Source of the DNA: a virus
Lineage: Duplodnaviria; Heunggongvirae; Uroviricota; Caudoviricetes
Reading direction: 5' to 3' (one strand)
DNA length: 38,183 bases
Virus record (IMG/VR): IMGVR_UViG_2541047893_000009
Location: 1 to 38,183 of that record
Each line of letters opens with the position of its first letter. The first letter of the stretch is position 1. Positions 3,329-24,115 of this stretch are shown here, in pieces. The position numbers and the translations under genes were made by a program. A model generated the notes under the pieces. The model saw nothing but the letters and a program-made list of their open reading frames with translations, did no database searches and was not told where the DNA came from.

Positions 3329-3814
3329 TCAGTCAATGATGCGCATAATGGCGTTGCATTCCGGATGCTGCAGGGCGTAGTCCCGCAGACGGTAATAATG
3401 AACCGTCATGGCATAACACTCCGTGCGACAGGCATGATGACTGTACGTCATCAGACAGGCAGCAATGCCGGCGGCTTCCGGGCTCATTTCAGCACGGTTA
3501 CCGTTCATGGCATTGAACAGTACCCATGTCTCGTCATCATCGTCATCCGGTTCGGGTGCCATAAATGCCCCGCCGTTGTTCAGGGTGTACAGATTCCAGA
3601 TACCACCGCAGTAGTCTTCGCAAAGATGGTCCATCCAGCCGAAGACACGGGGTTCCAGGGTCACCCACTGTGGAATGAGGCCAAAATGCTGCGGCCAGAA
3701 GCTGATGCGCTGTTCATGAGGAACGAGAGTGGCAACCAGTTGAGGCTGGTCATTCTCTGAAGCTGTGACTACGGAAGCAGAAAGTGTACAGGTGTTCTGA
3801 GAAACAGTTTTCAT
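3329..3814 (-). CDS. Antirestriction protein, ArdB/KlcA family (YfjX/YkfF-like)
   Basis: 161-aa translation with an acidic PEPDDDDDETW stretch and conserved cysteine-rich C-terminus, recalled as typical of YfjX/KlcA; canonical position. Confidence 0.8.
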   Translation of the reverse strand: MKTVSQNTCTLSASVVTASENDQPQLVATLVPHEQRISFWPQHFGLIPQWVTLEPRVFGWMDHLCEDYCGGIWNLYTLNNGGAFMAPEPDDDDDETWVLFNAMNGNRAEMSPEAAGIAACLMTYSHHACRTECYAMTVHYYRLRDYALQHPECNAIMRIID

Positions 3815-3904
3815 GAGTGAAATCCTTATAAAACAAATAAATGCAGGGTTTTCGGGGAGCAGGGGGTAGGGGAGCCTGAATCACGTCTTCAGGGATGTGC
3901 TGCA

Positions 3905-4723
3905 TCAGCGCATGTTCTCCAGCAGCGTTTCTGTCATTACCCACAATGCGCGATTGAGCTTAATGTCCGTGTCGATGCTGTGAATGGCACGGGTGTGGAT
4001 ACGTTTTCCTTTAGCGCTGCGACCGGAAATCCCGCCTTTCAGCATATTCTCCTGGATGGTCTGATATGCGCTCCACAGGTCCTTACCGTAATCCTCCCGG
4101 CGTCGCGGCGTCAGAATGTCGGCGGTGGTGACGGGCTGATGTTCGTCACCATAACGGTAAGTCAGTGCCGCCTGTGCCAGCGCCTGGCGTGCCGGTGGCG
4201 GCAGGACCAGCGACTGCATGGCGTCACGCTTTTCTTCAATCCGGTCAAAAACCCCCACCACCTCGTAAGCCCCTTCGATAACTTTCTCCACTACATTTCC
4301 CCGGTGTGGAACACGCACTTCCCCCAGAGACTGACCACAGACGCATCCGTTCTGGCAGACGAACCTGAAGTAACCCGGCAGCATCTGGTAGCTGGAGGTA
4401 CCGTCATGGGAGTTCAGCAGGATGATTTCAGGGACATGTTGTCCGTTTATCTCCCCGTCACGGCGCAGACGCAGCATGTGTTTGGTGTATCCCCGGCGGC
4501 CCGGGTCGCGCACACGGGTCTGGCAGGCGAAGAATGGCTGAAAACCTTCCCGCTGCAGGCTTTCCAGCACTGTGATGGTGGGGATCCAGGTATAGTTCTC
4601 GCTTCTGGATGTGTGCTTATCTTCCCCGAATACGCTGGGGACGACCTGCATCAGTTCTTCACGAGTTAAGGGACGATCACGGCGTATCTGATTTACATGA
4701 CCAAAACGACTGGCTAATTGCAT
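3905..4723 (-). CDS. DUF932-domain protein (YfjQ/YafZ family)
   Basis: 272-aa ORF; sequence and position between the antirestriction gene and the regulator match YfjQ/YafZ of CP4 islands (memory-based). Confidence 0.7.
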   Translation of the reverse strand: MQLASRFGHVNQIRRDRPLTREELMQVVPSVFGEDKHTSRSENYTWIPTITVLESLQREGFQPFFACQTRVRDPGRRGYTKHMLRLRRDGEINGQHVPEIILLNSHDGTSSYQMLPGYFRFVCQNGCVCGQSLGEVRVPHRGNVVEKVIEGAYEVVGVFDRIEEKRDAMQSLVLPPPARQALAQAALTYRYGDEHQPVTTADILTPRRREDYGKDLWSAYQTIQENMLKGGISGRSAKGKRIHTRAIHSIDTDIKLNRALWVMTETLLENMR

Positions 4724-4750
4724 ACTTTGCTCCTTATGAATGAGTTAGCG

Positions 4751-4791
4751 GTATAAATGAAAAGGCCGCGTCTCCCGGAGAAGACGCGGCC
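4751..4791 (-). terminator. Putative intrinsic terminator / stable hairpin (11-bp perfect stem AGGCCGCGTCT, 8-nt loop) between the DUF905 and DUF932 genes
   Basis: Perfect inverted repeat at 4762-4791; on the minus strand it is followed by TTTCATTTATACC; the TATAAAT at 4751-4757 could also be a -10 element for the downstream gene. Confidence 0.45.
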
Positions 4792-4812
4792 TGATGGATG
4801 AAATGAAGACGT

Positions 4813-5046
4813 TTATTGCCTGAGAATTCCCTCACTGGCGAGATATGGATTTAGCTGTTTTCCGGCATCAGGTTCAAAATTCCAGCACCGCCAGCGTAGC
4901 TGCCCTTCAGCATTGTGGATAACCAGCCGGAAATGCGTTCCCTGATCATCTTCAATAAGCACATTGCGGTAAGCTGTTGTGACAGCCATCGCCTGTTCGC
5001 GTGAGAAAGGGCCTTCGGGCAATAAAACAGGGTGACAGTCCGACAT
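4813..5046 (-). CDS. DUF905-family small protein
   Basis: 77-aa ORF in the conserved position; family assignment from memory. Confidence 0.55.
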
Positions 5047-5051
5047 ACCGG

Positions 5052-5729
5052 CTATTTTCCGATAAATTCAACGCTGGCACCGGTGGCATTACCGTCAGCA
5101 CCAACCGTGACGGTCACTTTGTCGTACGCACGGTCTTCAGGATTGAACACTTCAAACTCAACCTTATTGCCTTTTACTTCGTAAGAGCCAAAATCAGCGG
5201 TTTCTGTTGTTTCCTCGTCATATTCCCGGGCGTATGCCTGCCGGGCAGCCTGCAGGACGGAATCTTTATTAATGGCGGGTGTCTGTTTCGGGGAAAAACC
5301 AGCAAGTGATGTGACAAATTTCGGACAGACCTTCAGCATATCACCGCGGGTGAATTCCATTCGTACACCAAATGCCTGTAAAACGGACACATCACGCTCT
5401 GCTATGGAGTGAACGGCTTTTTTGACCATTTCCGGCGCCTGTCCGACTTCCACCTCAACAGCCCTGAATCCCGTCTGCTGATTACACATTTGTGATGTGG
5501 GGATCAGGTTACCGTTAATACTGATACGGCTGCCCAGGAGCGTCTGTACACCATTCGGGCATCCCTGCATCAGGCCGGTAATACCAATCGTGCCATTTTT
5601 CAGCATTACCAGCGCCTGACCATCTTCCGTCATGGTCTGACACCAGCCGTTTTTGACAGCCCAGTTGCCGGCGGAGGCGGAGAATGATGCCACAGTGAAC
5701 AGCAGGGGAAAAAGAGCTCTGGTATTCAT
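5052..5729 (-). CDS. Secreted protein or lipoprotein of the YfjS/YafY type
   Basis: Start set at the internal ATG at 5729, giving the N-terminus [25 protein letters not shown], a signal-peptide-like sequence; the track ORF extends to 5834 without a hydrophobic N-terminus. Confidence 0.6.
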
Positions 5730-5876
5730 GACTGACCTCTGAAATGAACGTACGGTGTTATTGATAATGATGGAAGGTATGCAGTGACTGTTCAGGGAAT
5801 GACGTAGCCGTATATTTAGTTTTCTGTTCAACATATTGTCTCCATACCTGTTGGGACGGCTTTGGCAGGCCGGCGA

Positions 5877-6557
5877 TCACAGGTTAAAGGTGTTGATAAG
5901 TTTATGGATGAAAGAGAAATGTGGCAGGGCGGAGATAAAACGCTCTTCAGCGACCAGACTGTGGATGTGGCCTCTCCGTTCAAACCGTTCTGATGTCAGG
6001 CTGACTGATTTGATATCTGCCAGAGGAAAGACCTGCAGTTTTCCCTTCTGTAACGCGATCAGATACCAGCTACCGCTGTAATAAATGAGCCGGCAGGGCT
6101 CCAGTGACGGATACCATCGCTCAGCCATCAGAGAGATGTGGATACACTGTCTTATTGCCAGGATGAGTTGCGAGAAACACTCGGGGAACGTTGCAGTGAT
6201 ATCCGGCGCCGGTAGCCAGATAAGGCAGGGAGAGGGCTCCTGGTTGTCGGTAAGACAGGTTATCAGTCGTCCGTTCCGGAGCGGAAGTATCCGTGCGATC
6301 CCGGTATTCTGTATAAAAGAAAGCATTTCAGGGATCGCACCCGGGCTGCTCTGTCGTCTGAGGCTGTACCTGCCATTTCTGTACTCTAAATCCAGGTGAA
6401 CCAGACGCTGATGAAAATCGCGCTGTAAAGTACGTTCTGTAACGCCAAATTCATCTGACAGTGTTTTTAGTGACAGAGATTCTCCGGTCATCAGTCGGCT
6501 GATAATGAGTGATAAGCGAACCGCCAGGCGATCATGCCGGGAACGATTATCAGACAT
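5877..6557 (-). CDS. YfjR-like transcriptional regulator (N-terminal HTH, WYL-type C-terminal domain)
   Basis: 226-aa ORF; N-terminus RLAVRLSLIISRLMTGESLSLKTLSDEFGVTERTLQRD is HTH-like; position beside the GTPase as in CP4-57 yfjR. Confidence 0.7.
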   Translation of the reverse strand: MSDNRSRHDRLAVRLSLIISRLMTGESLSLKTLSDEFGVTERTLQRDFHQRLVHLDLEYRNGRYSLRRQSSPGAIPEMLSFIQNTGIARILPLRNGRLITCLTDNQEPSPCLIWLPAPDITATFPECFSQLILAIRQCIHISLMAERWYPSLEPCRLIYYSGSWYLIALQKGKLQVFPLADIKSVSLTSERFERRGHIHSLVAEERFISALPHFSFIHKLINTFNL

Positions 6558-6759
6558 AGATGTGCACTCCGTAAGAAAACATCTTTTATTTCATGATGTT
6601 ATTATGCATCATGATGTTGAAAGGATGTGTCGCATCCGGATAATCAGGAATAAAATGCAGCAGAAAAAATATTCTTTTAATTATCTGATTTTTAAGCATG
6701 ATTTCATAAAAAGAAGAATGCTCGTTAATCCAGCGACACATCCTGTCGGCGTGAGTGTG

Positions 6760-7644
6760 TCAGAACAGACGCTCCCACAGTGTGATCAGCAGGTGGATAA
6801 TGCGGTCCCGGGTTTTGCGCAGAAGCTGTAACATCCAGGCCGGAAAACTGAAACGGGCAACGGCGTCGTCAAAACTTTTCCCGATGGTTTCACCAAAAGT
6901 CTGTTGTGCGTGTTTCCGGGCCTGTTCAGAGCGGTTTTCTCCCCGGATATGTGAATACACCGCGCTGGTTGCCTGTGGTGGCAGTGCGTGGATCATCAGC
7001 GACACAAACGCCGGAAGGTTCCAGCCGACAGGTGCAGCAACGGAGAGTACTGGAAATGATGAAGGGAACAGGGTTGCCACCCGGGCTGTCACCGTCGCCA
7101 GTGAGAGCGCCTGCTGACGGGACGGGCATTTTTCTGTGGCATTCCATTCTTCAGCAGGAAACACGCGATCGGCATGGCTGAGAACAAACAGAAAACGCGA
7201 GGGATCTGCGCCTTCATTCAGTAAAAACTGATGCATGGTAATGTCGGCGGCATACGCGCGTTCATCTGCCCGCAGGATCCAGATAATCAGATCCAGTTCC
7301 GGTAGCAGCTGACGATAAAGTGTCCGGTATTCCTGATCATGCTGCGGTGTTTCACCAATGCCGGGCAGATCGACCAGCGTCATTCTGCGTTCACCGAGTT
7401 GCAGGGTAAGACGATGAGCCTGGCGGGTGCAGCCGTTCAGGGGATGCGTGGCGCAGATACGGGACTGAAAAATGGCATTACACAGGCTGCTTTTGCCGGT
7501 GCCGGATTTACCCATAATGCCAATCACGGGCTCGTAATGAATAACACTGTGGAGATGTTCAAGGATTTTCTGGCGAATTTCTTCAGGAAGAAACGTCAGA
7601 TATGATTTCACTTGTGCGGAGAGGGAAGAATGGCTGAATGACAT
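6760..7644 (-). CDS. YfjP/YkfA-family GTPase (50S ribosome-binding / dynamin-like GTPase family)
   Basis: 294-aa ORF with P-loop GIMGKSGTGKSS and a DLPG G3-like motif; characteristic first gene of this island module. Confidence 0.8.
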   Translation of the reverse strand: MSFSHSSLSAQVKSYLTFLPEEIRQKILEHLHSVIHYEPVIGIMGKSGTGKSSLCNAIFQSRICATHPLNGCTRQAHRLTLQLGERRMTLVDLPGIGETPQHDQEYRTLYRQLLPELDLIIWILRADERAYAADITMHQFLLNEGADPSRFLFVLSHADRVFPAEEWNATEKCPSRQQALSLATVTARVATLFPSSFPVLSVAAPVGWNLPAFVSLMIHALPPQATSAVYSHIRGENRSEQARKHAQQTFGETIGKSFDDAVARFSFPAWMLQLLRKTRDRIIHLLITLWERLF

Positions 7645-7746
7645 ACCGGTATCCTGTTGATTTCACTGAACCGGATCACACTAATCCGGTTTATCATTCA
7701 GGTAATATGGGCGTGAAAAAATCTGGAGTGACAAAGTTCGGGAGGA

Positions 7747-8700
7747 GTGATGGCATCACTGTCGATTAATACGCTACGCCGAATGAGCATTTGTAAAAGT
7801 CAGGCCTGGAAAGATACCCAGCGAATACTGAAGCGTAGTGGACTTGTGTACAGAGGGGAACGGTCAGAATCGTTTGATCCTGAGAAACATTTTAATCGTT
7901 ATACGGTGCGTTATCTGTACCTGCTTAACATAATTGCGCTTAAGATAAGGTCGGTTAGTAAATTTTCCTGTTGGATCGAGGTGGGACAATGCCATCGTAT
8001 GACTGGTAAACATTTATCTCTTAATGCCCCGCCTTTTATGCTGATTCCGCGTAGTATCCGGAGAAAAGTGGATGGATTCAGACAGTCAAAAGGTGAAGCA
8101 ACCCCAAAATCGGCTCAACCGTTCACGGGCAGTTTGTATGAGGTTTTGAGCAAGGAGAGCGATTCAGCTAAGCTGGACGCATGGATTGCTGAACTGCCTC
8201 TGAACTTGCAGGAGGAGGGAAAGGAAATCTCAGTCATGGGATTTAGTCCACGGGCTGTGGCCCGACCTGTTCTTCGGTCAGCATCCCCGACGTTTGAACT
8301 GTTTTATCAGGAGTATCAATCCCTAAGATTAAAATCTGTTTTTAAATTTGAACCAAGATTTGAACAACTTTTAACAAGACTGAGCTTTAGAAAACAATCA
8401 ATTCTCAGAAAACAACAATACAGGGTTAAATCGCAATTACTGGAGAGACTGGGGAATGTGTTGTTTTTCACGTCGCTTTATAACCAGGGATGTTTAGAGG
8501 AGTTTATAAATGCACTTGTGGAAAAGGAGGACATTTATCTGAAAATGTCCCCTGGGGAGGAAAAGGTGAAAGCACACCAGAAAATGGTTAACTACATTGA
8601 AGCGTTCTGCAACAAAATGACGGAAAAATACCTGATGCCCGCAGCAAGCAGACACTACAAAAAGAAGAAAATCGCTAGGAGCGAAAGTGGTGAAAGTTAA
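7747..8700 (+). CDS. Hypothetical protein, uncharacterised, AT-rich cargo gene
   Basis: 317-aa ORF preceded by a strong Shine-Dalgarno (GGGAGGAG); the ATG at 7750 is the likely start; no recognised motifs; lower GC by eye than flanking DNA. Confidence 0.6.
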   Translation: MMASLSINTLRRMSICKSQAWKDTQRILKRSGLVYRGERSESFDPEKHFNRYTVRYLYLLNIIALKIRSVSKFSCWIEVGQCHRMTGKHLSLNAPPFMLIPRSIRRKVDGFRQSKGEATPKSAQPFTGSLYEVLSKESDSAKLDAWIAELPLNLQEEGKEISVMGFSPRAVARPVLRSASPTFELFYQEYQSLRLKSVFKFEPRFEQLLTRLSFRKQSILRKQQYRVKSQLLERLGNVLFFTSLYNQGCLEEFINALVEKEDIYLKMSPGEEKVKAHQKMVNYIEAFCNKMTEKYLMPAASRHYKKKKIARSESGES

Positions 8701-9485
8701 TCCAGTCTACCGTACAGAATCAGTTGTTCCAGAATAGCCTGCTGTGTTGTTTTCCGCTCTCTGGTCAGTCTGTCCAGAGCGCTTTTTGCGGATGGCGATA
8801 TCTTTACGTTGATTTGTACCCGTTTATCTTTTTTTCCATCGATAAACTGTTTTCTGAATGCATTGTGCATCTTGTCGAAAAATCTTTCTTTTGCAGCGAA
8901 TCCTAGGTGAAATTCTTTTGGCGTCAGTAAACAGGGTGTGTCTGTGGGGAATAACATTTTTAGTAAAACTACAATGGCAATATATCTTTCGTTATCATTT
9001 ACAGGATTAAACCAGGAAAGATATGTGGGTGAGATACGTGCATCAATATATTCCCATGCCCATTTCAGTTGTTCGGTATTCTTTTTAAGCCATTTGGCTT
9101 CGTTTCTCTTTTCGAGTCCCAGCCAGTTTTGATGCATTATTGAGATAATCCGATCTGCTTCCCCATAAAGGATTAACGCATTAATCCATTTCCCTATAAC
9201 ATTCAGTCGTGTTTCATGACTTGAAGGAATAATTGTCATGGGGTTATCCTTCATAACGATCACCCCCTTCAAGGCAGAATTGAACTCAGATTCATTATTA
9301 AGTTTAAGTTTTTCGGGAACTGTATGAGACATAATTAACCAGAACCAGAATGCTGCAATTTCATTTTTTCTGATCCATTCAGGTATGTGATTATCTGCCA
9401 GATTATTATCATTCAATAAATGCTCAGTTGTTTTATTTTTCCAGTCATATCTATTCACGTTATAACCGCCTTTATATTGTTTCAT
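8697..9485 (-). CDS. Hypothetical protein with a C-terminal ribbon-helix-helix-like segment, AT-rich cargo gene
   Basis: Start set at the ATG at 9485 (MKQYKGGYNV...), which has GAGG about 10 nt upstream; the track ORF runs to 9572. The C-terminus RVQINVKISPSAKSALDRLTRERKTTQQAILEQLILYG resembles an RHH DNA-binding fold. The stop overlaps the stop of the convergent 7747-8700 gene (shared TTAA at 8697-8700). Confidence 0.55.
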   Translation of the reverse strand: MKQYKGGYNVNRYDWKNKTTEHLLNDNNLADNHIPEWIRKNEIAAFWFWLIMSHTVPEKLKLNNESEFNSALKGVIVMKDNPMTIIPSSHETRLNVIGKWINALILYGEADRIISIMHQNWLGLEKRNEAKWLKKNTEQLKWAWEYIDARISPTYLSWFNPVNDNERYIAIVVLLKMLFPTDTPCLLTPKEFHLGFAAKERFFDKMHNAFRKQFIDGKKDKRVQINVKISPSAKSALDRLTRERKTTQQAILEQLILYGRLD

Positions 9486-9610
9486 CTGATTACGCCTCAA
9501 TCGTTTTCTTTTCTGGTGATTTTCACCATCACATGTCAGTTGTATATGCAAGGGAATCAATAAAAATATCACCCTGCAAGCACTTCAAAGCTGATTATGG
9601 GGATATTCTA

Positions 9611-9664
9611 GAACTATTCACAAAACTATTCCAGACATATCAAGAACTATTTCTTGATCTATTC
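9611..9664. repeat. Four direct repeats of RAnCTATTC upstream of the 8697-9485 gene
   Basis: gaactattc (9611), aaactattc (9623), gaactattt (9644), gatctattc (9656); spacing 12, 21, 12 bp. Confidence 0.4.
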
Positions 9665-10164
9665 ATAATAAAATAAAACATGCTATCAACTACGGATCAT
9701 ATCCTCCTTAGGTGTGTCGTTGTACTGTTCGACTGTTCTTGTGGTCAGATTAACAATCTGAAGAGTAAAAGCGACAGTAATCTGTCTGTTATAGTGGCGA
9801 TAAAAACACTGACTGCGCATCCTGTATGTGAAATCCTGTCATGTAGAGCAGTAAGCAATGACAGACATGCATGTTATATGTGAAGGGGCCGGGAGACGAC
9901 ATAATCAGTATGGCTGTCATTCTGGTTGTAAAACGCGATCACTTTCCGGGGGTAAAAGATGATATGGAGGTTGACAAACGGTTTGCTTCGGATTGTCTTT
10001 TCTGGGGCCTGAAGTACGGGGGCAGAAAAATAATTCCAGAGTAAATCTGCTCTGTTTTTAGGACAGAAAACTCCATGCTGGCTGTAAAAGTGAAAAATTA
10101 ACACCTAGTATGTATGGAAGTCTGAAGATATTGAGAATGTCGGTATGATACTATATACACATAT

Positions 10165-10285
10165 TTTACTAAGTATTTTTACTAAGCATTTCAGTAAGTG
10201 TTATACACGTATTTTCTACTAAGTGTTTTACCAGACATACACGTGTTTTCATAAACAGCCCTATAAGTGTTTTCATTAAGCATTG
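10165..10285. repeat. Iteron-like cluster of ACTAAG[TC]-containing repeats
   Basis: ttttactaagtattttt, actaagcatt, cagtaagtgtt, ctactaagtgtttt, tataagtgttttcat, cattaagcatt within about 120 bp in an ORF-poor AT-rich tract. Confidence 0.4.
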
Positions 10286-11147
10286 CTGTACACATTGCTT
10301 TGTCTGAAACACATCCAGTTTAGTAAATCTTTACGTTAGCTAAAATCAGTTTAAAGCTGCTGTAAAACCTTTTTGTTTAAGCAATCAATCTGCTATTCGA
10401 TTTTACTGATGTTGCGTTTAACCTTTTCTGAGTTTTTGTGTTTTTAGTCGTTAACCTGAGACAAGTGTCTTTACGTAAAAACGCAAATCCGACTGAGATA
10501 ACCTGGTGTGATTTACGGTGTGCTTGCGACGATTTTGTTAAATGGTTCTATGGATGATTTTGTGACGATGAGATTGATGAGATGATTAACTGGCCCTGGT
10601 GTTTTTTCTCAGTGCAAGGTGATTATCTTTATCATAAGGCTCTTTTCAGAAAAAGCGTGATGATTGGTTCTGGTGTTTTGATTCAGATGAGATTTACGTT
10701 ATCGATGGTTAATCGTTTTTATGGTGTGTTGAAAAGTAACGTTTTCAGGATAAGAAAATCGATTCTGATATTGGTGAACTTTGTTCTTGTGGCAGAGTTA
10801 TCTGTAAACAGGTTTTAAGTGCGCTATTCGGCTCTGTGATTGAGTTGTGTGGTTAAGCTGTAGGTTTTGGTGTTGTTGTTGATTTGCATTGCCAGGAAGC
10901 GTTCTGGTTGCGTTTCTGGTGTTTTGTTCGAATGTTCTGTGGATCCTTTTCCCTTCAGGCTTTTCTCGTCGTCCATGTCGTTTTTAAATCTATTCATGCT
11001 GTTGTTGCGTGTTTTGCTGCTGTGTGCAGGATTATCTTTTCGTTCCGGGATGGTTTGTTCCGTTTCAATCACTCTTAATCAGAGAGTTGTAGCATTGCTC
11101 AATGCCGGATGCCGTAAAGTTTTACCGCGTTGATGAATGATGTGAAG

Positions 11148-11280
<133 letters not shown>

Positions 11281-11309
11281 CAGAACTCGCTCCAGCCTGA
11301 TTGCAGATA

Positions 11310-11699
11310 TTACTCTTTTTTCTCCGTATCTACATCGGGTTCATCAGCAAATAGCTTGCCCTGCATCCGATCCAGTTCTTCTTTTCTTACCCGCTTAACC
11401 ACGCTGTAGACCCACTGAAGCGAAACACCAAATTTGCGGGCCAGTTCATGGTGGTTACGTCCGTTAAACTCCCTGAAGATTTCCCGGTCGCGCTGACTGA
11501 CCTTCCATACCATGCCCATCGGGAAATAAACGTTTTGCCCGCCCCAGACCTGCATCATGCGGTTCGCGACGGCCTGACCAATCTGGTCGGCAATTGCGGG
11601 CTCAATATCAATAATCTCGCGAACGGTCTCAGAGGTATGCTGTGCCAGTTCCACCAGGAGTTCCGGCCCTTTACTTCGAAACTGATTCAGGTCGCTCAT
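11310..11699 (-). CDS. mor: Mor/C-family transcription activator (middle/late gene activator)
   Basis: 129-aa ORF, the same length as Mu Mor; the C-terminal HTH region ...REIFREFNGRNHHELARKFGVSLQWVYSVVKR is typical of the Mor/C family; last gene of the early operon. Confidence 0.85.
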   Translation of the reverse strand: MSDLNQFRSKGPELLVELAQHTSETVREIIDIEPAIADQIGQAVANRMMQVWGGQNVYFPMGMVWKVSQRDREIFREFNGRNHHELARKFGVSLQWVYSVVKRVRKEELDRMQGKLFADEPDVDTEKKE

Positions 11700-18101: not shown

Positions 18102-19016
18102 TTATGCCTCCAGCCCGTTAATCTGTGGCGTCGGCTCAGTCAGCCATGAAGGCGCGGCATTGCCTGTTGGCTCATCCGGCAGGTCAAATGTGGAGCGCAG
18201 GCTACGCGCTGTGCTTTCCAGTTGACAGACCAGGCCTGCCATGAAGTCTCTGGGGGTATCAATCATGTTTTCAGCACAATATGCGCACAGCGTCTCAAAA
18301 GCGCTGGACAGTCGAACGGCGATAGCAGATTCCGCCTCAACCGCTAATGCTGTCACTTCCGCCCGCAGCTTCTTAACCTCTTCATCAGGCTCAGGCGGCT
18401 GAATACGGGATTTCTTCTCCAGTCTGGTGGAGAGTGAGTCTATTTTTTCATTTTTGTCAGCGAGTACGCGCTGTTGTGCTGCGTTGGTTTCGCGCGCTTC
18501 GCGCAGGGCCTGACGCAATTCACGTACTGACATGCGATCAACGTCGTCAAGCGTCAGGCCGGCAACTGTGCCGCCGTCGGCCAATTCATCAAGTTCTTCA
18601 TTATCCAGAACCATCAGGTCGTACAGTTTGGCTTTCCCCAAAACGCTCAACGTTGAGCGTTTTGTTGGCTCATCACCTTCTCCCAAAAACTTCATACTGG
18701 CTTGCATCATGCGGCGAGCAACTTGTGGTGCAAGTCCGAGTTCATTTTCTAAAATGTTTGTAAAATCACCGTGTGGCTCATTTTCTTTTAAGATGATCAG
18801 CCGCTTACCCGCTTCCAGCATAGATTCAGCACTCTGCGCCATATAAAAACGTGCTTCGTGAACAATGCGATCACGTTCATAAGGCAGTCCATCACCAAAC
18901 TGCTGCATAATTTCCATGCGATGCTGTGTCATAGCGTTCAAATTGACATTGATGTTATCTGACAGCGGAACCTCAACATTCAGTTCAGTGTTAACGGGTG
19001 ATTTGGTGCGTCCCAT
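18102..19016 (-). CDS. Early-region hypothetical protein with coiled-coil segment (possibly DUF3102-type)
   Basis: 304-aa ORF whose stop lies 3 nt before the transposase start; family uncertain. Confidence 0.5.
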   Translation of the reverse strand: MGRTKSPVNTELNVEVPLSDNINVNLNAMTQHRMEIMQQFGDGLPYERDRIVHEARFYMAQSAESMLEAGKRLIILKENEPHGDFTNILENELGLAPQVARRMMQASMKFLGEGDEPTKRSTLSVLGKAKLYDLMVLDNEELDELADGGTVAGLTLDDVDRMSVRELRQALREARETNAAQQRVLADKNEKIDSLSTRLEKKSRIQPPEPDEEVKKLRAEVTALAVEAESAIAVRLSSAFETLCAYCAENMIDTPRDFMAGLVCQLESTARSLRSTFDLPDEPTGNAAPSWLTEPTPQINGLEA

Positions 19017-19026
19017 TGATTACTCC

Positions 19027-19335
19027 TTACAAACGACTACCTGAAATAACTCGTTGGTTGATTTCGTTAATACGATCCTGTGCACGCGCCATCTCGTGAC
19101 TGTGAGCCATGGCGATCTGTAGTAACTGGATTCCCGGTGCGAAACGTCCGTTCTCTAATTTCATGGCCAGTCCCTCTTCAATAAGGGTATTAAGTGCTCG
19201 ATTGATATTCGCTGGGGACTCCCCCAGGGCTGATGCCAGTTCACCGTTAGAAACACCGTTCAGAGCATGACCGCGTAGAGCTTTGAGTACACGTAGGATG
19301 CGGGTCCCAGAACTGGAAATATTTACTTTACTCAT
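19027..19335 (-). CDS. Putative winged-helix transcriptional regulator (about 102 aa)
   Basis: Start set at the ATG at 19335 (MSKVNISSSGTRILRVLKAL...); HTH-like segment GVSNGELASALGESPANINRALNTLIEEGL. Confidence 0.5.
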   Translation of the reverse strand: MSKVNISSSGTRILRVLKALRGHALNGVSNGELASALGESPANINRALNTLIEEGLAMKLENGRFAPGIQLLQIAMAHSHEMARAQDRINEINQRVISGSRL

Positions 19336-19387
19336 GTCACATTTCCATTTTTGCAATATGTGATAACCTGTTGCATATGTGGAAAAT

Positions 19388-19576
19388 TTATGCCGCATTT
19401 GACGTGGGTTTTAATCCCAGTTTTACGGCAATTTCATGGGCTTTGCCGTAACGAGCTTTGGTCTGTCCATTGAGAACACGATAGACCTCATTGCGGCTGT
19501 AGCCGTGTTCTTCGGCCCAGCGGGTAAACGTGATACCACGCTGACGGAAGAGATTTTTAACTTGTTCGGAAGTCAT
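19388..19576 (-). CDS. Ner-like/Cro-like small DNA-binding protein, first gene of the early operon
   Basis: 62-aa ORF divergent from the repressor gene; GYSRNEVYRVLNG...GKAHEIAVKLGLKP resembles the Ner family HTH and C-terminal pattern as recalled. Confidence 0.6.
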   Translation of the reverse strand: MTSEQVKNLFRQRGITFTRWAEEHGYSRNEVYRVLNGQTKARYGKAHEIAVKLGLKPTSNAA

Positions 19577-19626
19577 TGTTGTCTCCTTTGTTGATGCAAT
19601 GATGTTTGTTTTATATGTGATAGATT

Positions 19627-20088
19627 ATGAGAACTATTATTCTCATTGTCAATGAGGTTTATGTGAATTTTGATTCTCTTTGCGCGTCGCGGTTCAAAGC
19701 TGAGCGTTCGCGGTTATCACTCAAGCAGGCTGAAGTAGCAGCCCTTTGTGGCGTTTCAAGAGAAATGTGGGGGAAATATGAACGAGGGGTTGCTGTTCCC
19801 GGAGGTGAGTTACTTGCAGCCTTTGCAAGAATTGGGGCCAATGTACAGTTCATTCTTACCGGGGAGTCATCAGGTATAACTTTATCACGTGATGAAATGG
19901 AGTTACTGCAGCACTACCGGCAGGCACCATTACAGGTCAAAGGTTCAGTTTTGTCGGCCTTGACTACTGGCTCCTCCAGAGAACGGGCGGAACAGGTTAT
20001 TCATGGAGATGTTCTGGGGAATGTTATCAAAGGTAACGTAACCATAGGAACAGGTGGAATAATGAACAAAAATACCAAGAGAAGATGA
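19627..20088 (+). CDS. XRE-family HTH repressor (candidate prophage immunity repressor)
   Basis: HTH LSLKQAEVAALCGVSREMWGKYERG; divergent from the early operon. The true start is possibly the in-frame GTG at 19663, because the ATG-initiated N-terminus overlaps the operator-like palindrome. Confidence 0.75.
   Translation: MRTIILIVNEVYVNFDSLCASRFKAERSRLSLKQAEVAALCGVSREMWGKYERGVAVPGGELLAAFARIGANVQFILTGESSGITLSRDEMELLQHYRQAPLQVKGSVLSALTTGSSRERAEQVIHGDVLGNVIKGNVTIGTGGIMNKNTKRR
19642..19656. promoter_or_regulatory. Candidate operator: perfect 7-bp inverted repeat CTCATTG-t-CAATGAG in the divergent repressor / early-operon control region
   Basis: Palindrome read directly at 19642-19656, between the Ner-like start (19576) and the body of the repressor gene. 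Confidence 0.4.
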
Positions 20089-21071
20089 GTAAAGAGAAGC
20101 AAACAGTTAACGGGGATGTGGGTAACGTTGTCAGCGGTGATGTTACCATTCATAACTATTCTGCTGACATACTTCCTTCGGCCCAGCAACCAATTTCGTT
20201 GCTGCAAAAACGCGATTTACACAGATTGATGGATGAATTGGTTGATCTGGGGGAAAGTAAGCGCGAGCTATGGATGACGATCCACACGAAACTTAATACC
20301 AAAACAGTTAATGAAATGACTGCGGCTGATTATCATGGTGCGGTTGAGATCCTTCAGAGATATGCACAACAGATCCAGAATATGAAGGACTGTAATCTTC
20401 TGGTCAGCAAAATAATGGCGCTTACTGACCCTGGGTATCGTCTTGACCGTGACAGATACTGTCTGAAGCATTTCGGTACAACCCATCTTAAAGGCCTAGA
20501 CAAAGAGCAGTTGCAGGCTGTGTTTGGTTATTTTGATGATCTGCTGAATATTCGTGATGAGAGTAAAACTCTATCACCTCCATCGGAAAGCGGTGCAAAA
20601 TCAGTCGCAACTGTACCAACCAGAAGCCGGAAGCCTCATGTAGTAGTGTTGGGGGGAGTGTTAGTTCTTGTAGCAATATTTTTCGTGGGAATGATTGTGT
20701 TCGCTGGTAAATGGGGAAATGCCAAAGCAGTAGCTTCTACTGAAACCAGCGTTTTTAACATTAAAACCAACAATAAAATAATAGAAGATTCCATCCCCGC
20801 ACTGCGCAGCATGTTTCCAGGGTTAAATAAGTACTCAGATGATTTCCATTCGGTTTCAAGCTACAAGCAAAAAACGGGCTGGCATACCCTTAAATTTACT
20901 GTATCAGCAAAGGCATCCGTCCCCGAAAATTATAGTGTTAAGGGCAAGGTTTGTTACATTAACATAAGCCCTGATGGTAGTTATGCTCGGGTTTTGACTG
21001 CTCCATGTCGTTCACTGCTACTTGATCAGCAAAGCACTCCTGACAGTAAATACCGTTTTATTCTTAAATAG
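20085..21071 (+). CDS. Single-pass membrane protein of unknown function (328 aa), translationally coupled to the repressor
   Basis: Its ATG overlaps the repressor stop (ATGA); central TM helix HVVVLGGVLVLVAIFFVGMIVFAG; AT-rich; N-terminus shares a GDV-GNV-G-VTI motif with the repressor C-terminus. Confidence 0.6.
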   Translation: MSKEKQTVNGDVGNVVSGDVTIHNYSADILPSAQQPISLLQKRDLHRLMDELVDLGESKRELWMTIHTKLNTKTVNEMTAADYHGAVEILQRYAQQIQNMKDCNLLVSKIMALTDPGYRLDRDRYCLKHFGTTHLKGLDKEQLQAVFGYFDDLLNIRDESKTLSPPSESGAKSVATVPTRSRKPHVVVLGGVLVLVAIFFVGMIVFAGKWGNAKAVASTETSVFNIKTNNKIIEDSIPALRSMFPGLNKYSDDFHSVSSYKQKTGWHTLKFTVSAKASVPENYSVKGKVCYINISPDGSYARVLTAPCRSLLLDQQSTPDSKYRFILK

Positions 21072-21152
21072 AAAATAACAGCTGAATTACCATGGGATCA
21101 GAAAAAAGACAAAGGCGGCATCATGCTGCGTTCTGAAATTTTAATGTAAAAG

Positions 21153-21743
21153 GTGATGAACATGGCAGGGATTCAGGTTATCGCAGGAAGTTTTCCTAAA
21201 GGGTGGGCAAGCATGGGGTTCGGTACCATCGTGTTTGCCAAAAAACCAAAACAAGGCTTTCCTGAAAATATTGTATTAAATCTGAAAGAAGAGCTTTTAT
21301 CGATTGAACTTGCGGATAGTGAAGAGGAAAGCCGTATAGGTAAGGCGGCAGGCGCAGGTTTGCTTGGTGGATTAATCTTTGGTGGTGCAGGGTTGGTCAT
21401 TGGAGGTTTGCTTGGTGCGGCGGACAAGACGAAAAAAACTATCACTTTTAAGGCAATGTTTACGGGAAATAGGTTACTTCTGGCTAAAACAGATTCAAAA
21501 ACTTTTGTAAAACTTCAGTCAATTGCTGCTGATAATGCCCATAACGCATCTGTAATCAACATGAAGCAAACTAATAGGGGCGATGTTTCTTCTCGTAAAC
21601 AACTAACAGAAAATCCACAGCAGCAAGACTTACCTGCGCCCGCTACAACAGTAAAAATGACTGCCAAAGATAAGTTAGAATCGGCTCTTGGGCTGGGAAT
21701 CATCGTTATAGCTGTTTGGGCAATAATACACTTCTTTTTTTAG
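21153..21743 (+). CDS. Glycine-zipper membrane protein of unknown function (about 194 aa)
   Basis: AAGAGLLGGLIFGGAGLVIGGLLGAA glycine-zipper TM segment plus a C-terminal TM (LGLGIIVIAVWAIIHFFF); the likely start is the ATG at 21162 with AAGGTG upstream; followed by a terminator. Confidence 0.6.
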   Translation: MMNMAGIQVIAGSFPKGWASMGFGTIVFAKKPKQGFPENIVLNLKEELLSIELADSEEESRIGKAAGAGLLGGLIFGGAGLVIGGLLGAADKTKKTITFKAMFTGNRLLLAKTDSKTFVKLQSIAADNAHNASVINMKQTNRGDVSSRKQLTENPQQQDLPAPATTVKMTAKDKLESALGLGIIVIAVWAIIHFFF

Positions 21744-21744
21744 T

Positions 21745-21770
21745 GCAGCCCTTCAGGGCTGTTTCTGTTC
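21745..21770 (+). terminator. Rho-independent terminator (stem CAGCCC/GGGCTG, loop TTCA, then TTTCTGTTC)
   Basis: Hairpin read directly, 2 nt after the stop of the 21153-21743 gene. Confidence 0.6.
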
Positions 21771-21780
21771 AGGAGGTATC

Positions 21781-22257
21781 TTAAGGATTATCCGGGGCGT
21801 TTTCCTGTTTGCCGTACTTCGGAGACGAACAACATTCTGTTGGCTGACCGGTGAGTTTACGTAACTCCTTCATGAGCAGCTCCTGATCGTAAACTGTCAT
21901 CAGTGCCGCAATGGTGGCATGCAGTGCATCGGGCAGTATCCAGGGTTGCCGGCCCGTGGGGCATATAACATCCAGCAGCTCATTCGTCCGACAGATACGC
22001 TCCTCGCCGTATGACAACAGGCCCTGTCCCGTGTATTCCTCTAGCCTGATCACTGTGCCACCCCGTGGCTTCTGCCAGGTCGTCAGATCTTCGCCATTCA
22101 TACGGCGCTCATTCTCCACGTCAGCAGCATCGACAATGACGCTGTTTCCGAGTTCCTGTTTCACCATCTCTTCTATCCGCGCCAGTACGTAACTTTTACC
22201 GCTGCCCACAGGACCGGACACAGTGACAGTGATGACCGGATTCAGTGTGTGCGTCAT
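21781..22257 (-). CDS. Small P-loop NTPase/kinase-like protein (158 aa)
   Basis: Walker A VSGPVGSGKSYV and a possible Walker B SVIVDAAD; convergent with the repressor-linked operon and divergent from the late operon. Confidence 0.55.
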   Translation of the reverse strand: MTHTLNPVITVTVSGPVGSGKSYVLARIEEMVKQELGNSVIVDAADVENERRMNGEDLTTWQKPRGGTVIRLEEYTGQGLLSYGEERICRTNELLDVICPTGRQPWILPDALHATIAALMTVYDQELLMKELRKLTGQPTECCSSPKYGKQENAPDNP

Positions 22258-22387
22258 ATCGTATTCTCCTCTGTGAATAATTCATCGTTTATCCTGCACA
22301 TCCCGTATCCCCGGCTCTCTTAACGCGCTTTAAAATCCTTTGCGCCCTGTATTTGTGATGCTGTCTCCACCAAACGAGGAGACACAC
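22258..22387. promoter_or_regulatory. Divergent promoter region: likely Mor-dependent late promoter for the lysis/late operon and promoter of the P-loop gene
   Basis: 130-bp intergenic between divergent genes; inferred from Mu, where C-dependent late promoters precede lys; no motif confirmed. Confidence 0.3.
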
Positions 22388-22738
22388 ATGAAAAACCTGA
22401 AAAAATTCATTCCCCCTGTTAAAAAACCTCGCCTCAGCGGCTGGCTGCTGACCTCAGTGCTGTTGCTGGGCACCATCGCTCTGGTCTCACCACAGCAGCT
22501 GCCTGTTGTGATCTACAAGCTGGCACTCATCACGCTGGCAGCAGTGCTGGGTTACTGGCTTGACCGTTCGCTCTTCCCCAAAGCCCGTCCCGGTCAGTAC
22601 CTGAAACATGACGACAGGCTGATGGCTGAAGGGCGTTTCCCGGTACAGACCGGCCTTCACCTGGTGTTTTCTGCTGCGTTAATCCGCCGTGCACTGATTG
22701 TTGCAGCGGTCTGCCTGGCTGTTGCGATGGGGCTTTAA
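22388..22738 (+). CDS. Putative holin / multi-TM membrane protein (116 aa)
   Basis: ATG at 22388 with GAGGA SD; three hydrophobic segments; immediately upstream of the endolysin gene. Confidence 0.5.
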   Translation: MKNLKKFIPPVKKPRLSGWLLTSVLLLGTIALVSPQQLPVVIYKLALITLAAVLGYWLDRSLFPKARPGQYLKHDDRLMAEGRFPVQTGLHLVFSAALIRRALIVAAVCLAVAMGL

Positions 22739-22740
22739 TC

Positions 22741-23481
22741 ATGAACTGGCCGCAGATCACCTGGATTGTATGCATGTCCCTGAAACTGGCTTTCGAAGCC
22801 TTTCGGGTCTTCATCAGAACCGAACGCCTGTCAGTCCGCGCCGGGACCTTTCTGGTTCATATGGCATGGGTATTCTTTGTCGCAATGTTGCTCTGGTGTG
22901 GCGGCTTTTTCAGCCAGGCATGCGCAGCACAACCTCCGCAGGCTGCGCTGCAGTATCGCGATGATGTGATCCGTAATGCCCGGCTTGAATGGGGACTGTC
23001 TGCGCCGGTGGCCGATTTCGCCGCGCAACTGCATCAGGAAAGCGGCTGGCGACCTGATGCGATCTCGCCGGCTGGCGCTCAGGGACTGGCGCAGTTCATG
23101 CCTGCCACTGCCGACTGGATAAGCCAGTTGATACCGATGCTGAGCAGTCGTGAGCCGTTTAATCCGGCATGGGCTATCCGGGCGCTGGTCAGCTATGACC
23201 GCTGGCTGTGGCAGCGTGTCAGCGCCGCCAGTGACTGCGAGCGTATGGCCATGACACTGTCGGGCTATAACGGTGGTCTGGGCTGGGTACAACGGGACAG
23301 GCGGCTTGCATCACAGAAAGGTCTGGACAGCACCCGCTGGTTCGGACATGTCGCCACGGTGAATGCCGGACGCAATGCGGCCAGCTGGCGGGAGAACCGC
23401 CATTATCCGCAGCGCATCCTGCGCGAACTGGCACCGCGATATCTCACATGGGGAGGCAGCAGTTGTGTGGCATCTGATTAA
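22741..23481 (+). CDS. Endolysin, lytic transglycosylase (SLT domain), with a probable N-terminal signal or signal-anchor
   Basis: SLT signature AQLHQESGWRPDAISPAGAQGLAQFMPATA; hydrophobic MAWVFFVAMLLWCGGFF segment (alternative start at 22861). Confidence 0.8.
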   Translation: MNWPQITWIVCMSLKLAFEAFRVFIRTERLSVRAGTFLVHMAWVFFVAMLLWCGGFFSQACAAQPPQAALQYRDDVIRNARLEWGLSAPVADFAAQLHQESGWRPDAISPAGAQGLAQFMPATADWISQLIPMLSSREPFNPAWAIRALVSYDRWLWQRVSAASDCERMAMTLSGYNGGLGWVQRDRRLASQKGLDSTRWFGHVATVNAGRNAASWRENRHYPQRILRELAPRYLTWGGSSCVASD

Positions 23482-24115
23482 AAAGCTGCCGTGGCGCGGC
23501 ATTCTGCTGGCCATTCTTATCAATGCCTTTCTGGTCGGCCTGTATGCCATGGGATACAGAAGTGGTCATGACTCTGCAAAGCGTGACGGTGATACCGCGC
23601 TCAGTCAGTTGCAGTCAGCATTTGACGCGTACAAAACGGAGCAGGCAACGCTTGAGAATGCTGCGCTGCGGGCCTGGGCCAGACGGTATCAGGAGCAGGT
23701 GGCCGCCGGGCAGCGGGCTGAAGCCGGTTATCTTGAGCAGATTGCTCAACTGGAGAGCCGGAATAAACAACTACAGGGGCAAATTAACGATGTCACACAG
23801 CGCTGGATTGATGAAAAAGGTAAGAGCCATCCCATTGAGTGCGTGTTTACTCGCGGTTTCGTGCGCCAGTACAACGCCGCACTCGGATATGACAACGCAT
23901 CCGTCGACACCGGTCATTCAGACTCAGTTGCCGCCGCTGGCACCCGCTCTGGCACAGCGACCGGGCAACCTGAAACCACTGACACCCGGTTACGCGATTC
24001 GGGTGTCTCCCAGCGTGACGTTCTCGCCAACATCATCGACAACGCAGGACAATGTCGTCGCTGGCGGAACCAGATAAACGCGTTACTGGATGAACGGGAA
24101 GGATTACAGAAATGA
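23465..24115 (+). CDS. Rz-like inner-membrane spanin (i-spanin)
   Basis: Probable GTG start at 23465 overlapping the endolysin 3' end; N-terminal TM (ILLAILINAFLVGLYAMGY) then a coiled-coil-like region; the track ORF starts at 23363. Confidence 0.6.
   Translation: MWHLIKKLPWRGILLAILINAFLVGLYAMGYRSGHDSAKRDGDTALSQLQSAFDAYKTEQATLENAALRAWARRYQEQVAAGQRAEAGYLEQIAQLESRNKQLQGQINDVTQRWIDEKGKSHPIECVFTRGFVRQYNAALGYDNASVDTGHSDSVAAAGTRSGTATGQPETTDTRLRDSGVSQRDVLANIIDNAGQCRRWRNQINALLDEREGLQK
23811..24077 (+). CDS. Rz1-like outer-membrane lipoprotein spanin (o-spanin), fully embedded in the +1 frame of the Rz-like gene
   Basis: ATG at 23811 gives MKKVRAIPLSACLLAVSC... with a lipobox-like LAVSC and a proline-rich mature region. 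Confidence 0.6.
   Translation: MKKVRAIPLSACLLAVSCASTTPHSDMTTHPSTPVIQTQLPPLAPALAQRPGNLKPLTPGYAIRVSPSVTFSPTSSTTQDNVVAGGTR

Follow-up and report, generated by a model that had tools for sequence, protein, structure and literature searches.

The locus in the BcepMu-like prophage

The stretch of DNA analysed here (the window) is 38,183 nucleotides long and corresponds to positions 1 to 38,183 of IMG/VR record IMGVR_UViG_2541047893_000009. From ~11.3 kb on, the window consists of an E. coli transposable prophage of the BcepMu-like type (Bcepmuvirus); the prophages in IAI39, CE10, and others match it with 100% identity. Leftward from 19576, the prophage carries a ner-like gene, an IclR-like gene, a DUF3102 gene, the transposase, an ExeA-like B protein, gam, and mor. 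Rightward, it starts with the repressor (19627–20088), followed by the genes of a 328-aa and a 196-aa membrane protein and then by the subject of this work, a minus-strand gene with a P-loop motif. Past this gene come the holin, SLT endolysin, spanin, DUF3486 TerS, TerL, portal, head, and tail genes. At the other end (window ~3675–11310), comparison with the identical IAI39 region shows that the mor end of the prophage (mor, 11310–11699) abuts remnants of a lambdoid tail-fibre gene and a truncated Lom gene, past which lies sitABCD. Apparently, the transposable phage integrated within or next to a decayed lambdoid prophage.

The P-loop gene (21781–22257, minus strand) starts with ATG and encodes a 158-aa protein, with the Walker A motif GPVGSGKS at residues 15–22 (22192–22215, minus strand). 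It converges on the repressor-linked operon, whose 196-aa ORF ends on the plus strand at 21743 after a gap of 37 nt, and it diverges from the late operon, whose holin gene (22388–22738) lies across a spacer of 130 nt. The initial annotation had described the gene, its motif, and its orientation in the same way.

The gene has its own Shine–Dalgarno sequence, GAGGAG (22266–22271, minus strand), 8 nt upstream of the ATG, and the GAGGA of this sequence is kept in divergent prophages. The region upstream of the gene (22258–22319, minus strand) is cassette-specific, as homology to L039, a prophage of E. coli 503025 that lacks the gene, starts only at 22320. This region presumably holds the promoter of the gene. 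A promoter scan of 22258–22319 found no sigma-70 consensus or promoter for the gene; a conserved GCAGGAT block is present there. In the 37-nt convergent gap, a terminator scan detected a GC-rich hairpin (21745–21762, plus strand), which looks like the terminator of the plus-strand membrane-protein operon and part of that cassette; homology with the allele of prophage L049 is already gone at this point. No Rfam family was found in 19000–24000.

Spurious ORFs are numerous in the region around the P-loop gene. The 158-aa ORF is more than a chance ORF because it matches PHROG 3787 with an E-value of 2.1e-107 (359 bits; residues 1–157 on profile positions 1–157 of 242), because the pairwise dN/dS between alleles is 0.15–0.35, and because the G/GK residues of the Walker A motif are invariant. 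Judged by sequence comparison, it is a real, intact gene under selection.

Distribution and cassette structure

Of the 5426 complete E. coli genomes, 583 have the P-loop gene, in each case within a BcepMu-like transposable prophage. The allele of the window (≥99% identity), annotated as “ABC transporter ATPase”, accounts for 107 of these genomes, and the 242/247-aa alleles, annotated as “hypothetical protein”, for ~436. One cultured phage, Escherichia phage PhiKM (Bcepmuvirus), has a PHROG 3787 gene at the same position. In every gene-bearing locus that retains the upstream flank, the gene is directly divergent from the holin gene, and this synteny holds even where the holins are 63–68% identical and the N-terminal domains of the P-loop proteins 47–57% identical. 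Downstream, the gene is usually followed by a convergent 126/134-aa gene and a 71-aa gene, and these by a Dam methylase and the repressor. In these Dam-containing layouts, the 126/134-aa gene (L003, 5705–6109, minus strand; L049, 5720–6100, minus strand) converges on the P-loop gene. It is 27% identical between the two allele contexts and overlaps the 3′ end of the long allele by 25 nt.

BcepMu lacks the P-loop gene; gp17 (the repressor) to gp20 and then the holin are all on one strand. Gp18–gp20 occupy the same variable slot between the immunity repressor and the lysis genes as the P-loop gene, but they are on the repressor strand and not homologous to it. The KS10/BcepMu paper confirms only that the repressor-to-holin slot varies. 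The P-loop gene is not a member of the core gene set of Mu-like and BcepMu-like phages. It is dispensable, since BcepMu and some E. coli relatives (the L039-type prophages) do without it. Homology to a Mu-like core gene of known function, an outcome that the initial annotation had singled out, was not found.

Other genes occupy the slot elsewhere. In L039 (5008–6604), a 203-aa protein and a DUF2441 protein fill it, and in another prophage (L004), a pair of membrane proteins of 297 and 145 aa follows the repressor. The slot behaves as a hotspot of alternative cassettes, which could be candidate defence systems.

The boundaries of homology fall exactly at the stop codon of the P-loop gene and ~60 nt upstream of its start. 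At the first of these boundaries, the DNA homology between the window and the L049 allele ends exactly after the TAA. These breaks delimit a discrete cassette of ~535 bp (21781 to about 22319) with its own ribosome-binding site, which fits the suggestion, made among others in the initial annotation, that the gene is an independent moron.

A family of mini P-loop proteins

PHROG 3787 (function unknown) has a profile of 242 positions, of which the window protein, a short allele, lacks the last ~85. A literature search found no paper naming the accessions of the gene or PHROG 3787. When 1.84 billion representative proteins were searched with a profile, 66 matched. Past the close E. coli relatives, only profile positions 1–75 match, in proteins of 73–364 aa whose C-termini are mosaic and unrelated. 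In the window protein, this part corresponds to residues 1–76 (22030–22257, minus strand), the sole part conserved across the wider family.

The order of elements in the domain is a strand, the Walker A motif GxxGxGK[ST], a helix, a second strand, an E–R loop, a Trp, and a final strand with Glu at its end. The Walker A motif thus follows a β strand, as in the P-loop NTPase superfamily. In an alignment of 28 diverse domains, residues G20 and K21 are invariant and G15 and I28 nearly so, and the G/GK residues of Walker A are the only invariant columns across distant relatives. S/T22 is usual, with GKN in place of GK[ST] in three relatives. Further conserved are the E50–R51 motif, W61, and T68; residue D43 after strand 2 is not conserved. 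The predicted third strand, TVIRLEE (residues 68–74; 22036–22056, minus strand), ends in the nearly invariant Glu74, which 90% or more of 48 sequences retain at the end of a hydrophobic strand (hhhLxE). The sequence fits the Walker B pattern, which makes this strand a candidate Walker B.

The domain also occurs as complete proteins of 70–82 aa in unrelated phages. In a Yersinia mollaretii prophage, the stand-alone gene lies after the spanin genes and before HNH, TerS, and TerL; in Acinetobacter pittii and related prophages, it lies after Lar and HNH genes and before TerS. The Yersinia and Acinetobacter proteins are 71 aa long. A further stand-alone gene is present in an HK97-like prophage on a Logan assembly contig. 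Two homologues are 82 aa long, one from a spring-water siphovirus (virome), near a Lar gene and mis-annotated as a kinase, and one from Vibrio phage 1.101.O (L057, 2998–3246), between the thymidylate synthase and DHFR genes. No conserved downstream partner of the stand-alone homologues was found. We also considered that these genes are split, with the missing C-terminal module encoded downstream, and rejected this idea because no such module was found.

Longer relatives carry the domain in front of other sequences. The window protein has a C-terminal helical module, W.LPDA.HA.IAAL..YD..L..ELRK (residues 105–135; 21853–21945, minus strand), which some relatives also have, at their C-terminal end. 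For 10 long relatives, the C-terminal modules matched no Pfam family. One relative of 159 aa (P0087) has the domain at residues 79–157, behind an N-terminal region whose sequence reads like that of a peptidoglycan-binding domain. Either the two are genuinely fused or the gene was called wrongly. Taken together, these comparisons define the family by a 70–75-aa N-terminal mini P-loop domain that stands alone or appears fused to interchangeable, mostly helical C-terminal modules.

The domain is present in only 3 of the 50,697 phage records and is otherwise a family of prophages and metagenomes. A back-translated Walker A pattern was too generic for use on genome contigs (at least two loci). The initial annotation had called the gene an orphan, a label that no longer applies given PHROG 3787, its occurrence in 583 genomes of E. 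coli, and its relatives in Yersinia, Acinetobacter, Pseudomonas, Vibrio, and marine phages.

Several relatives have DNA methyltransferases adjacent or nearby, and Lar-type proteins are encoded near some of the stand-alone homologues. Acb2/Tad1-hairpin proteins are a family of anti-CBASS/anti-Thoeris sponges. One longer relative, in a Pseudomonas prophage, is located two genes upstream of an Acb2/Tad1-hairpin gene (L048, 5730–5960), and another, on a large phage-like contig, ~4.4 kb (seven genes) from such a gene (L054, 1–96).

Structure prediction

The AF2 prediction for the 247-aa form, made with a shallow alignment, has a pLDDT of 44 and is unusable. A low-confidence AF2 model pairs strand 69–75 with strand 8–14. 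For the 158-aa form, AF2 with 48 sequences gives a pLDDT of 73 (87–93 over residues 10–70), no sheet, and predicted helices at residues 110–122 and 125–136. The conserved unit, with ~3 strands, lacks the three-layer α/β architecture of P-loop NTPases, whose parallel sheet has five or more strands, and no structural matches to kinases or P-loop families were found.

The palindrome, the holin leader, and a possible role in the lytic cycle

A conserved palindrome, TTAACGCGCTTTAA (22320–22333), marks the border between the P-loop cassette and the holin/late-promoter region. It occurs only once in the window at up to one mismatch and is kept in seven divergent prophages and in L039, which has no P-loop gene. 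It is likely a site for a late (Mor/C-type) activator of the lysis operon. Between the palindrome and the holin gene, the holin leader contains an inverted repeat, GTCTCC-N9-GGAGAC (22363–22383, plus strand), which overlaps the holin Shine–Dalgarno sequence (ATG at 22388). Its stems are invariant in seven divergent BcepMu-like prophages and in one prophage without the P-loop gene. The RNA hairpin folds with −14.2 kcal/mol (z −2.1) and may serve translational control of lysis.

This setting raises the question of whether the P-loop protein helps the lytic cycle, in lysis timing, late transcription, or DNA packaging. In BcepMu-like prophages, the gene is always directly upstream of and divergent from the lysis–terminase operon, beside the palindrome, and in five lambdoid/HK97-like prophages, the homologue is located just upstream of HNH, TerS, and TerL or just after the spanin genes. 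However, BcepMu and the L039-type prophages keep the palindrome and the holin leader without the gene. Because they are retained where the gene is missing, both elements belong to the holin side, and shared bidirectional control through the palindrome, which we had considered, is weakened. Moreover, other homologues lie in early or nucleotide-metabolism regions, and one would not usually expect a packaging or lysis factor to have hypervariable C-termini. A role as a lytic-cycle helper is rather unlikely.

Allele classes and the integrity of the 158-aa form

The E. coli alleles of the gene encode proteins of 121/128, 141, 158, 182 (with an internal deletion), 242, and 247 aa, with mosaic C-termini. 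Residues 1–152 of the window protein are identical to the 242-aa allele of L004, with one synonymous difference in the DNA, and similarity of the window gene to the long alleles decays after nt 465. Such a match would be expected if the 158-aa protein were a decaying, functionless remnant of the 242/247-aa form that has lost its last ~85 residues. The numerous fragmentary and frameshifted copies in databases and the internal deletion of the 182-aa allele agree with this reading.

The comparison of alleles argues otherwise. A second 158-aa allele (P0008, in L049), 83% identical to the first, has the same PDNP-stop ending in another downstream context, a 126-aa gene followed by Dam, and the ending is common to alleles 83–87% identical. 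In addition, the module at residues 105–135 comes last in the 141-aa allele and in several distant relatives (P0034, P0036, and P0057), and the 158-aa form ends 23 residues past it. Because the homology to the 158-aa allele of the other context ends exactly at the stop codon, and because the module before the tail is terminal elsewhere, the 158-aa form is, as far as the alignments tell, an intact allele class and not a truncation. Truncation by insertion of the neighbouring moron, suggested by the end of the match at nt 465, is rejected on account of the same 158-aa ending in the Dam-containing context. The dN/dS well below 1 and the size of the cluster with the 158-aa form (369 member sequences) also speak against decay, and we consider it unlikely that the protein is a remnant. 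The many truncated and frameshifted database copies suggest that some lineages are losing the gene.

Comparison with known P-loop families

The matches of the 158-aa protein to Pfam, NCBIfam, PADLOC, and PDB profiles are all sub-threshold and mostly confined to the first strand, Walker A, and the first helix. They include ABC_tran (E 0.11), T2SSE, AAA_30, KAP_NTPase (E 0.019), Zeta_toxin (E 0.09), and cytidylate kinase 1q3t (E 0.0012). The best PADLOC E-values, 0.003–0.007 (Csx3, SngB, mad8, and HerA), are below significance, and the matches to SngB, HerA, and Csx3 do not reach beyond the P-loop region. The protein thus carries the sequence hallmarks of a P-loop protein, but its fold and size agree with those of no P-loop family compared.

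Alleles of the same gene have been named “ABC transporter ATPase”, “KAP family NTPase”, “P-loop NTPase fold protein”, and “hypothetical protein” in RefSeq (WP_000149906.1, WP_240775459.1, and others). The PGAP name “ABC transporter ATPase” (WP_000149906.1) is rejected. The sequence of 158 residues, compared with about 240, has no ABC signature LSGGQ, Q-loop, or H-loop, and its scores are far under the cut-offs, with 13.6 bits vs 25 for ABC_tran and 14–15 bits vs 266–875 for the NCBIfam ABC models (15 vs 875 for TIGR00958). The PGAP name “KAP family NTPase”, given to shorter alleles, is rejected as well, since PF07693 is under its gathering threshold (14.6 bits vs a cut-off of 20, over residues 4–43 only). 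A virome record calls the 82-aa homologue a “bifunctional thymidylate/uridylate kinase”; the profile scores support no specific name.

The initial annotation considered the protein too small for an AAA+ protein or a zeta toxin and proposed instead a minimal nucleotide or polynucleotide kinase or a kinase-type toxin. Our analysis supports the judgement on size and describes a small cytoplasmic Walker A protein. Kinase/GTPase-type P-loop NTPases (NMP kinases, zeta toxin, AAA_33, and UreG/CobW) share with the mini P-loop domain the succession of strand, Walker A, helix, and strand, and a later strand ending in an acidic residue. In particular, the first ~45 residues, with a strand, Walker A, a helix, and a second strand followed by acidic residues, resemble the starts of NMP, shikimate, and zeta-type kinases. 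The matches to Zeta_toxin and 1q3t, together with sub-threshold guanylate/uridine kinase models (E 0.05–0.07), the automatic annotation of the 82-aa homologue, and the position of another homologue between thymidylate synthase and DHFR, point in the same direction.

However, these matches cover Walker A and the first helix only and fall under the curated cut-offs (Zeta_toxin, 12.6 bits vs 22.3; kinase NCBIfam models, 12–13 bits vs 180–263), and the AAA_33 and Pnk profiles do not match the 158-aa protein. Whereas kinase/GTPase-type folds have at least five strands and at least 150 aa, the mini P-loop unit has ~3 strands and two helices in ~75 aa and no LID or substrate domain, for which the complete 70–82-aa proteins leave no space. 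Furthermore, D43 after strand 2 varies, no structural match to kinases was found, and the protein has no conserved antitoxin-like partner. The genes in the convergent slot (126/134, 164, 182, and 196 aa) are mostly unrelated across alleles, which differs from the arrangement of a type II toxin–antitoxin system. On this evidence, a minimal kinase acting on nucleotides or polynucleotides is improbable, and so is a kinase toxin of the zeta type.

Relation to the repressor-linked membrane-protein module

The 328-aa membrane protein (20085–21071, plus strand) appears to be fused from two genes that are separate in other prophages. The first part corresponds to a 197-aa protein with a Flk_N-like domain and a transmembrane segment (67% identical over residues 1–153), and the second part to a lipoprotein of ~175 aa (24–27% identical over residues 193–319). 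Base composition changes sharply around this cassette. The repressor, 328-aa, and 196-aa genes (19627–21743) have a GC content of 42–46% and a GC3 of 36–40%, compared with 54–60% in the flanking phage genes, and the step falls at the cassette junction (21743–21781). The P-loop gene has a GC content of 54% and a GC3 of 60%, like the holin, SLT, and TerL genes.

The initial annotation proposed that the P-loop gene could be a third component of the module formed by the two membrane-protein genes. They are physically adjacent in the window, and the arrangement is identical in about 97–107 E. coli genomes, but the co-occurrence check fails both ways. Both membrane-protein genes are present in 97 E. 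coli genomes, compared with 583 for the P-loop gene, most copies of which adjoin the 126/134-aa gene and Dam methylase or other cassettes instead; the 328-aa gene is found without its 196-aa partner in ~30 further genomes; and in E. coli 503025 (L039), two other genes separate the 328-aa gene, which follows the repressor, from the holin, and the P-loop gene is missing. The third-component idea is refuted because distribution and base composition differ, and, with the P-loop gene on the opposite strand, its own ribosome-binding site, and a homology break exactly at its stop codon, we give it next to no credence.

Proposed function and implications

Of the readings considered, the one we favour, by a narrow balance of probability, is that the P-loop gene is an accessory member of an uncharacterised phage family whose products bind a nucleotide or phosphate ligand as oligomers, plausibly in conflict. 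Most of the weight of this composite proposal is carried by the part that says what the protein is. Its nucleotide-binding-oligomer step, taken by itself and as read from conserved residues, is perhaps a little less probable than its opposite.

The domain would bind a phosphate-bearing ligand (ATP/GTP or a nucleotide derivative) via the Walker A lysine K21 and S/T22, with Glu74 in a Walker-B-like role; the GKN of three relatives counts against such binding. A P-loop NTPase fold requires more than three strands, so the protein is likely to act as a dimer or a larger assembly, and its partner or target is probably determined by the variable C-terminal modules. As for the biological role, the protein would be an accessory factor, most plausibly in phage–host or phage–phage conflict, rather than a kinase toxin or a structural or core replication protein. 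A role in conflict is favoured because the neighbourhoods are rich in methyltransferases, Lar, and Acb2/Tad1-like genes and because the C-termini are hypervariable. The neighbourhood evidence is guilt by association, as these regions hold many kinds of small genes, and the positions beside thymidylate synthase/DHFR or HNH/terminase genes would fit nucleotide metabolism or packaging just as well. A specific counter-defence role, whichever it might be, is unlikely.

Phosphate-loop prototypes (PDB 6c2u/6c2v) need oligomerisation to bind phosphate ligands. These designed proteins are likewise very small strand–P-loop–helix units, and 6c2u is a weak profile match that is not significant (E 0.22). 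The likeness is conceptual, since the prototypes are laboratory constructs, whereas the mini P-loop proteins are a natural phage family under purifying selection. A more daring version of our proposal is that the 70–75-aa unit is a natural autonomous “half” P-loop domain that binds nucleotides as an oligomer. Alone or joined to variable adaptor modules, it would enable phages to sense or sequester a nucleotide, such as a second messenger of immunity or a component of the NTP/dNTP pool. We regard this version as a long shot.

Even if the protein is inert, the analysis corrects an annotation and removes a false three-gene-module hypothesis. The case also illustrates cleanly how transposable prophages exchange cassettes with codon precision in the accessory region from repressor to lysis genes. 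Roughly one complete E. coli genome in nine carries the gene, with ST131 among the clinical lineages concerned, and it is mis-named in RefSeq. Its compact, strongly conserved domain is not in Pfam and exists as a free-standing protein of ~70 residues in phages of several genera. If the domain binds nucleotides as an oligomer, it would be among the smallest natural P-loop units known and a candidate new player in the manipulation of nucleotides or immune signals by phages. If it is in addition an autonomous “half” P-loop, the family would represent a new class of phage counter-defence or nucleotide-manipulating proteins and would show in living form the minimal P-loop fragments from which P-loop NTPases have been proposed to descend.
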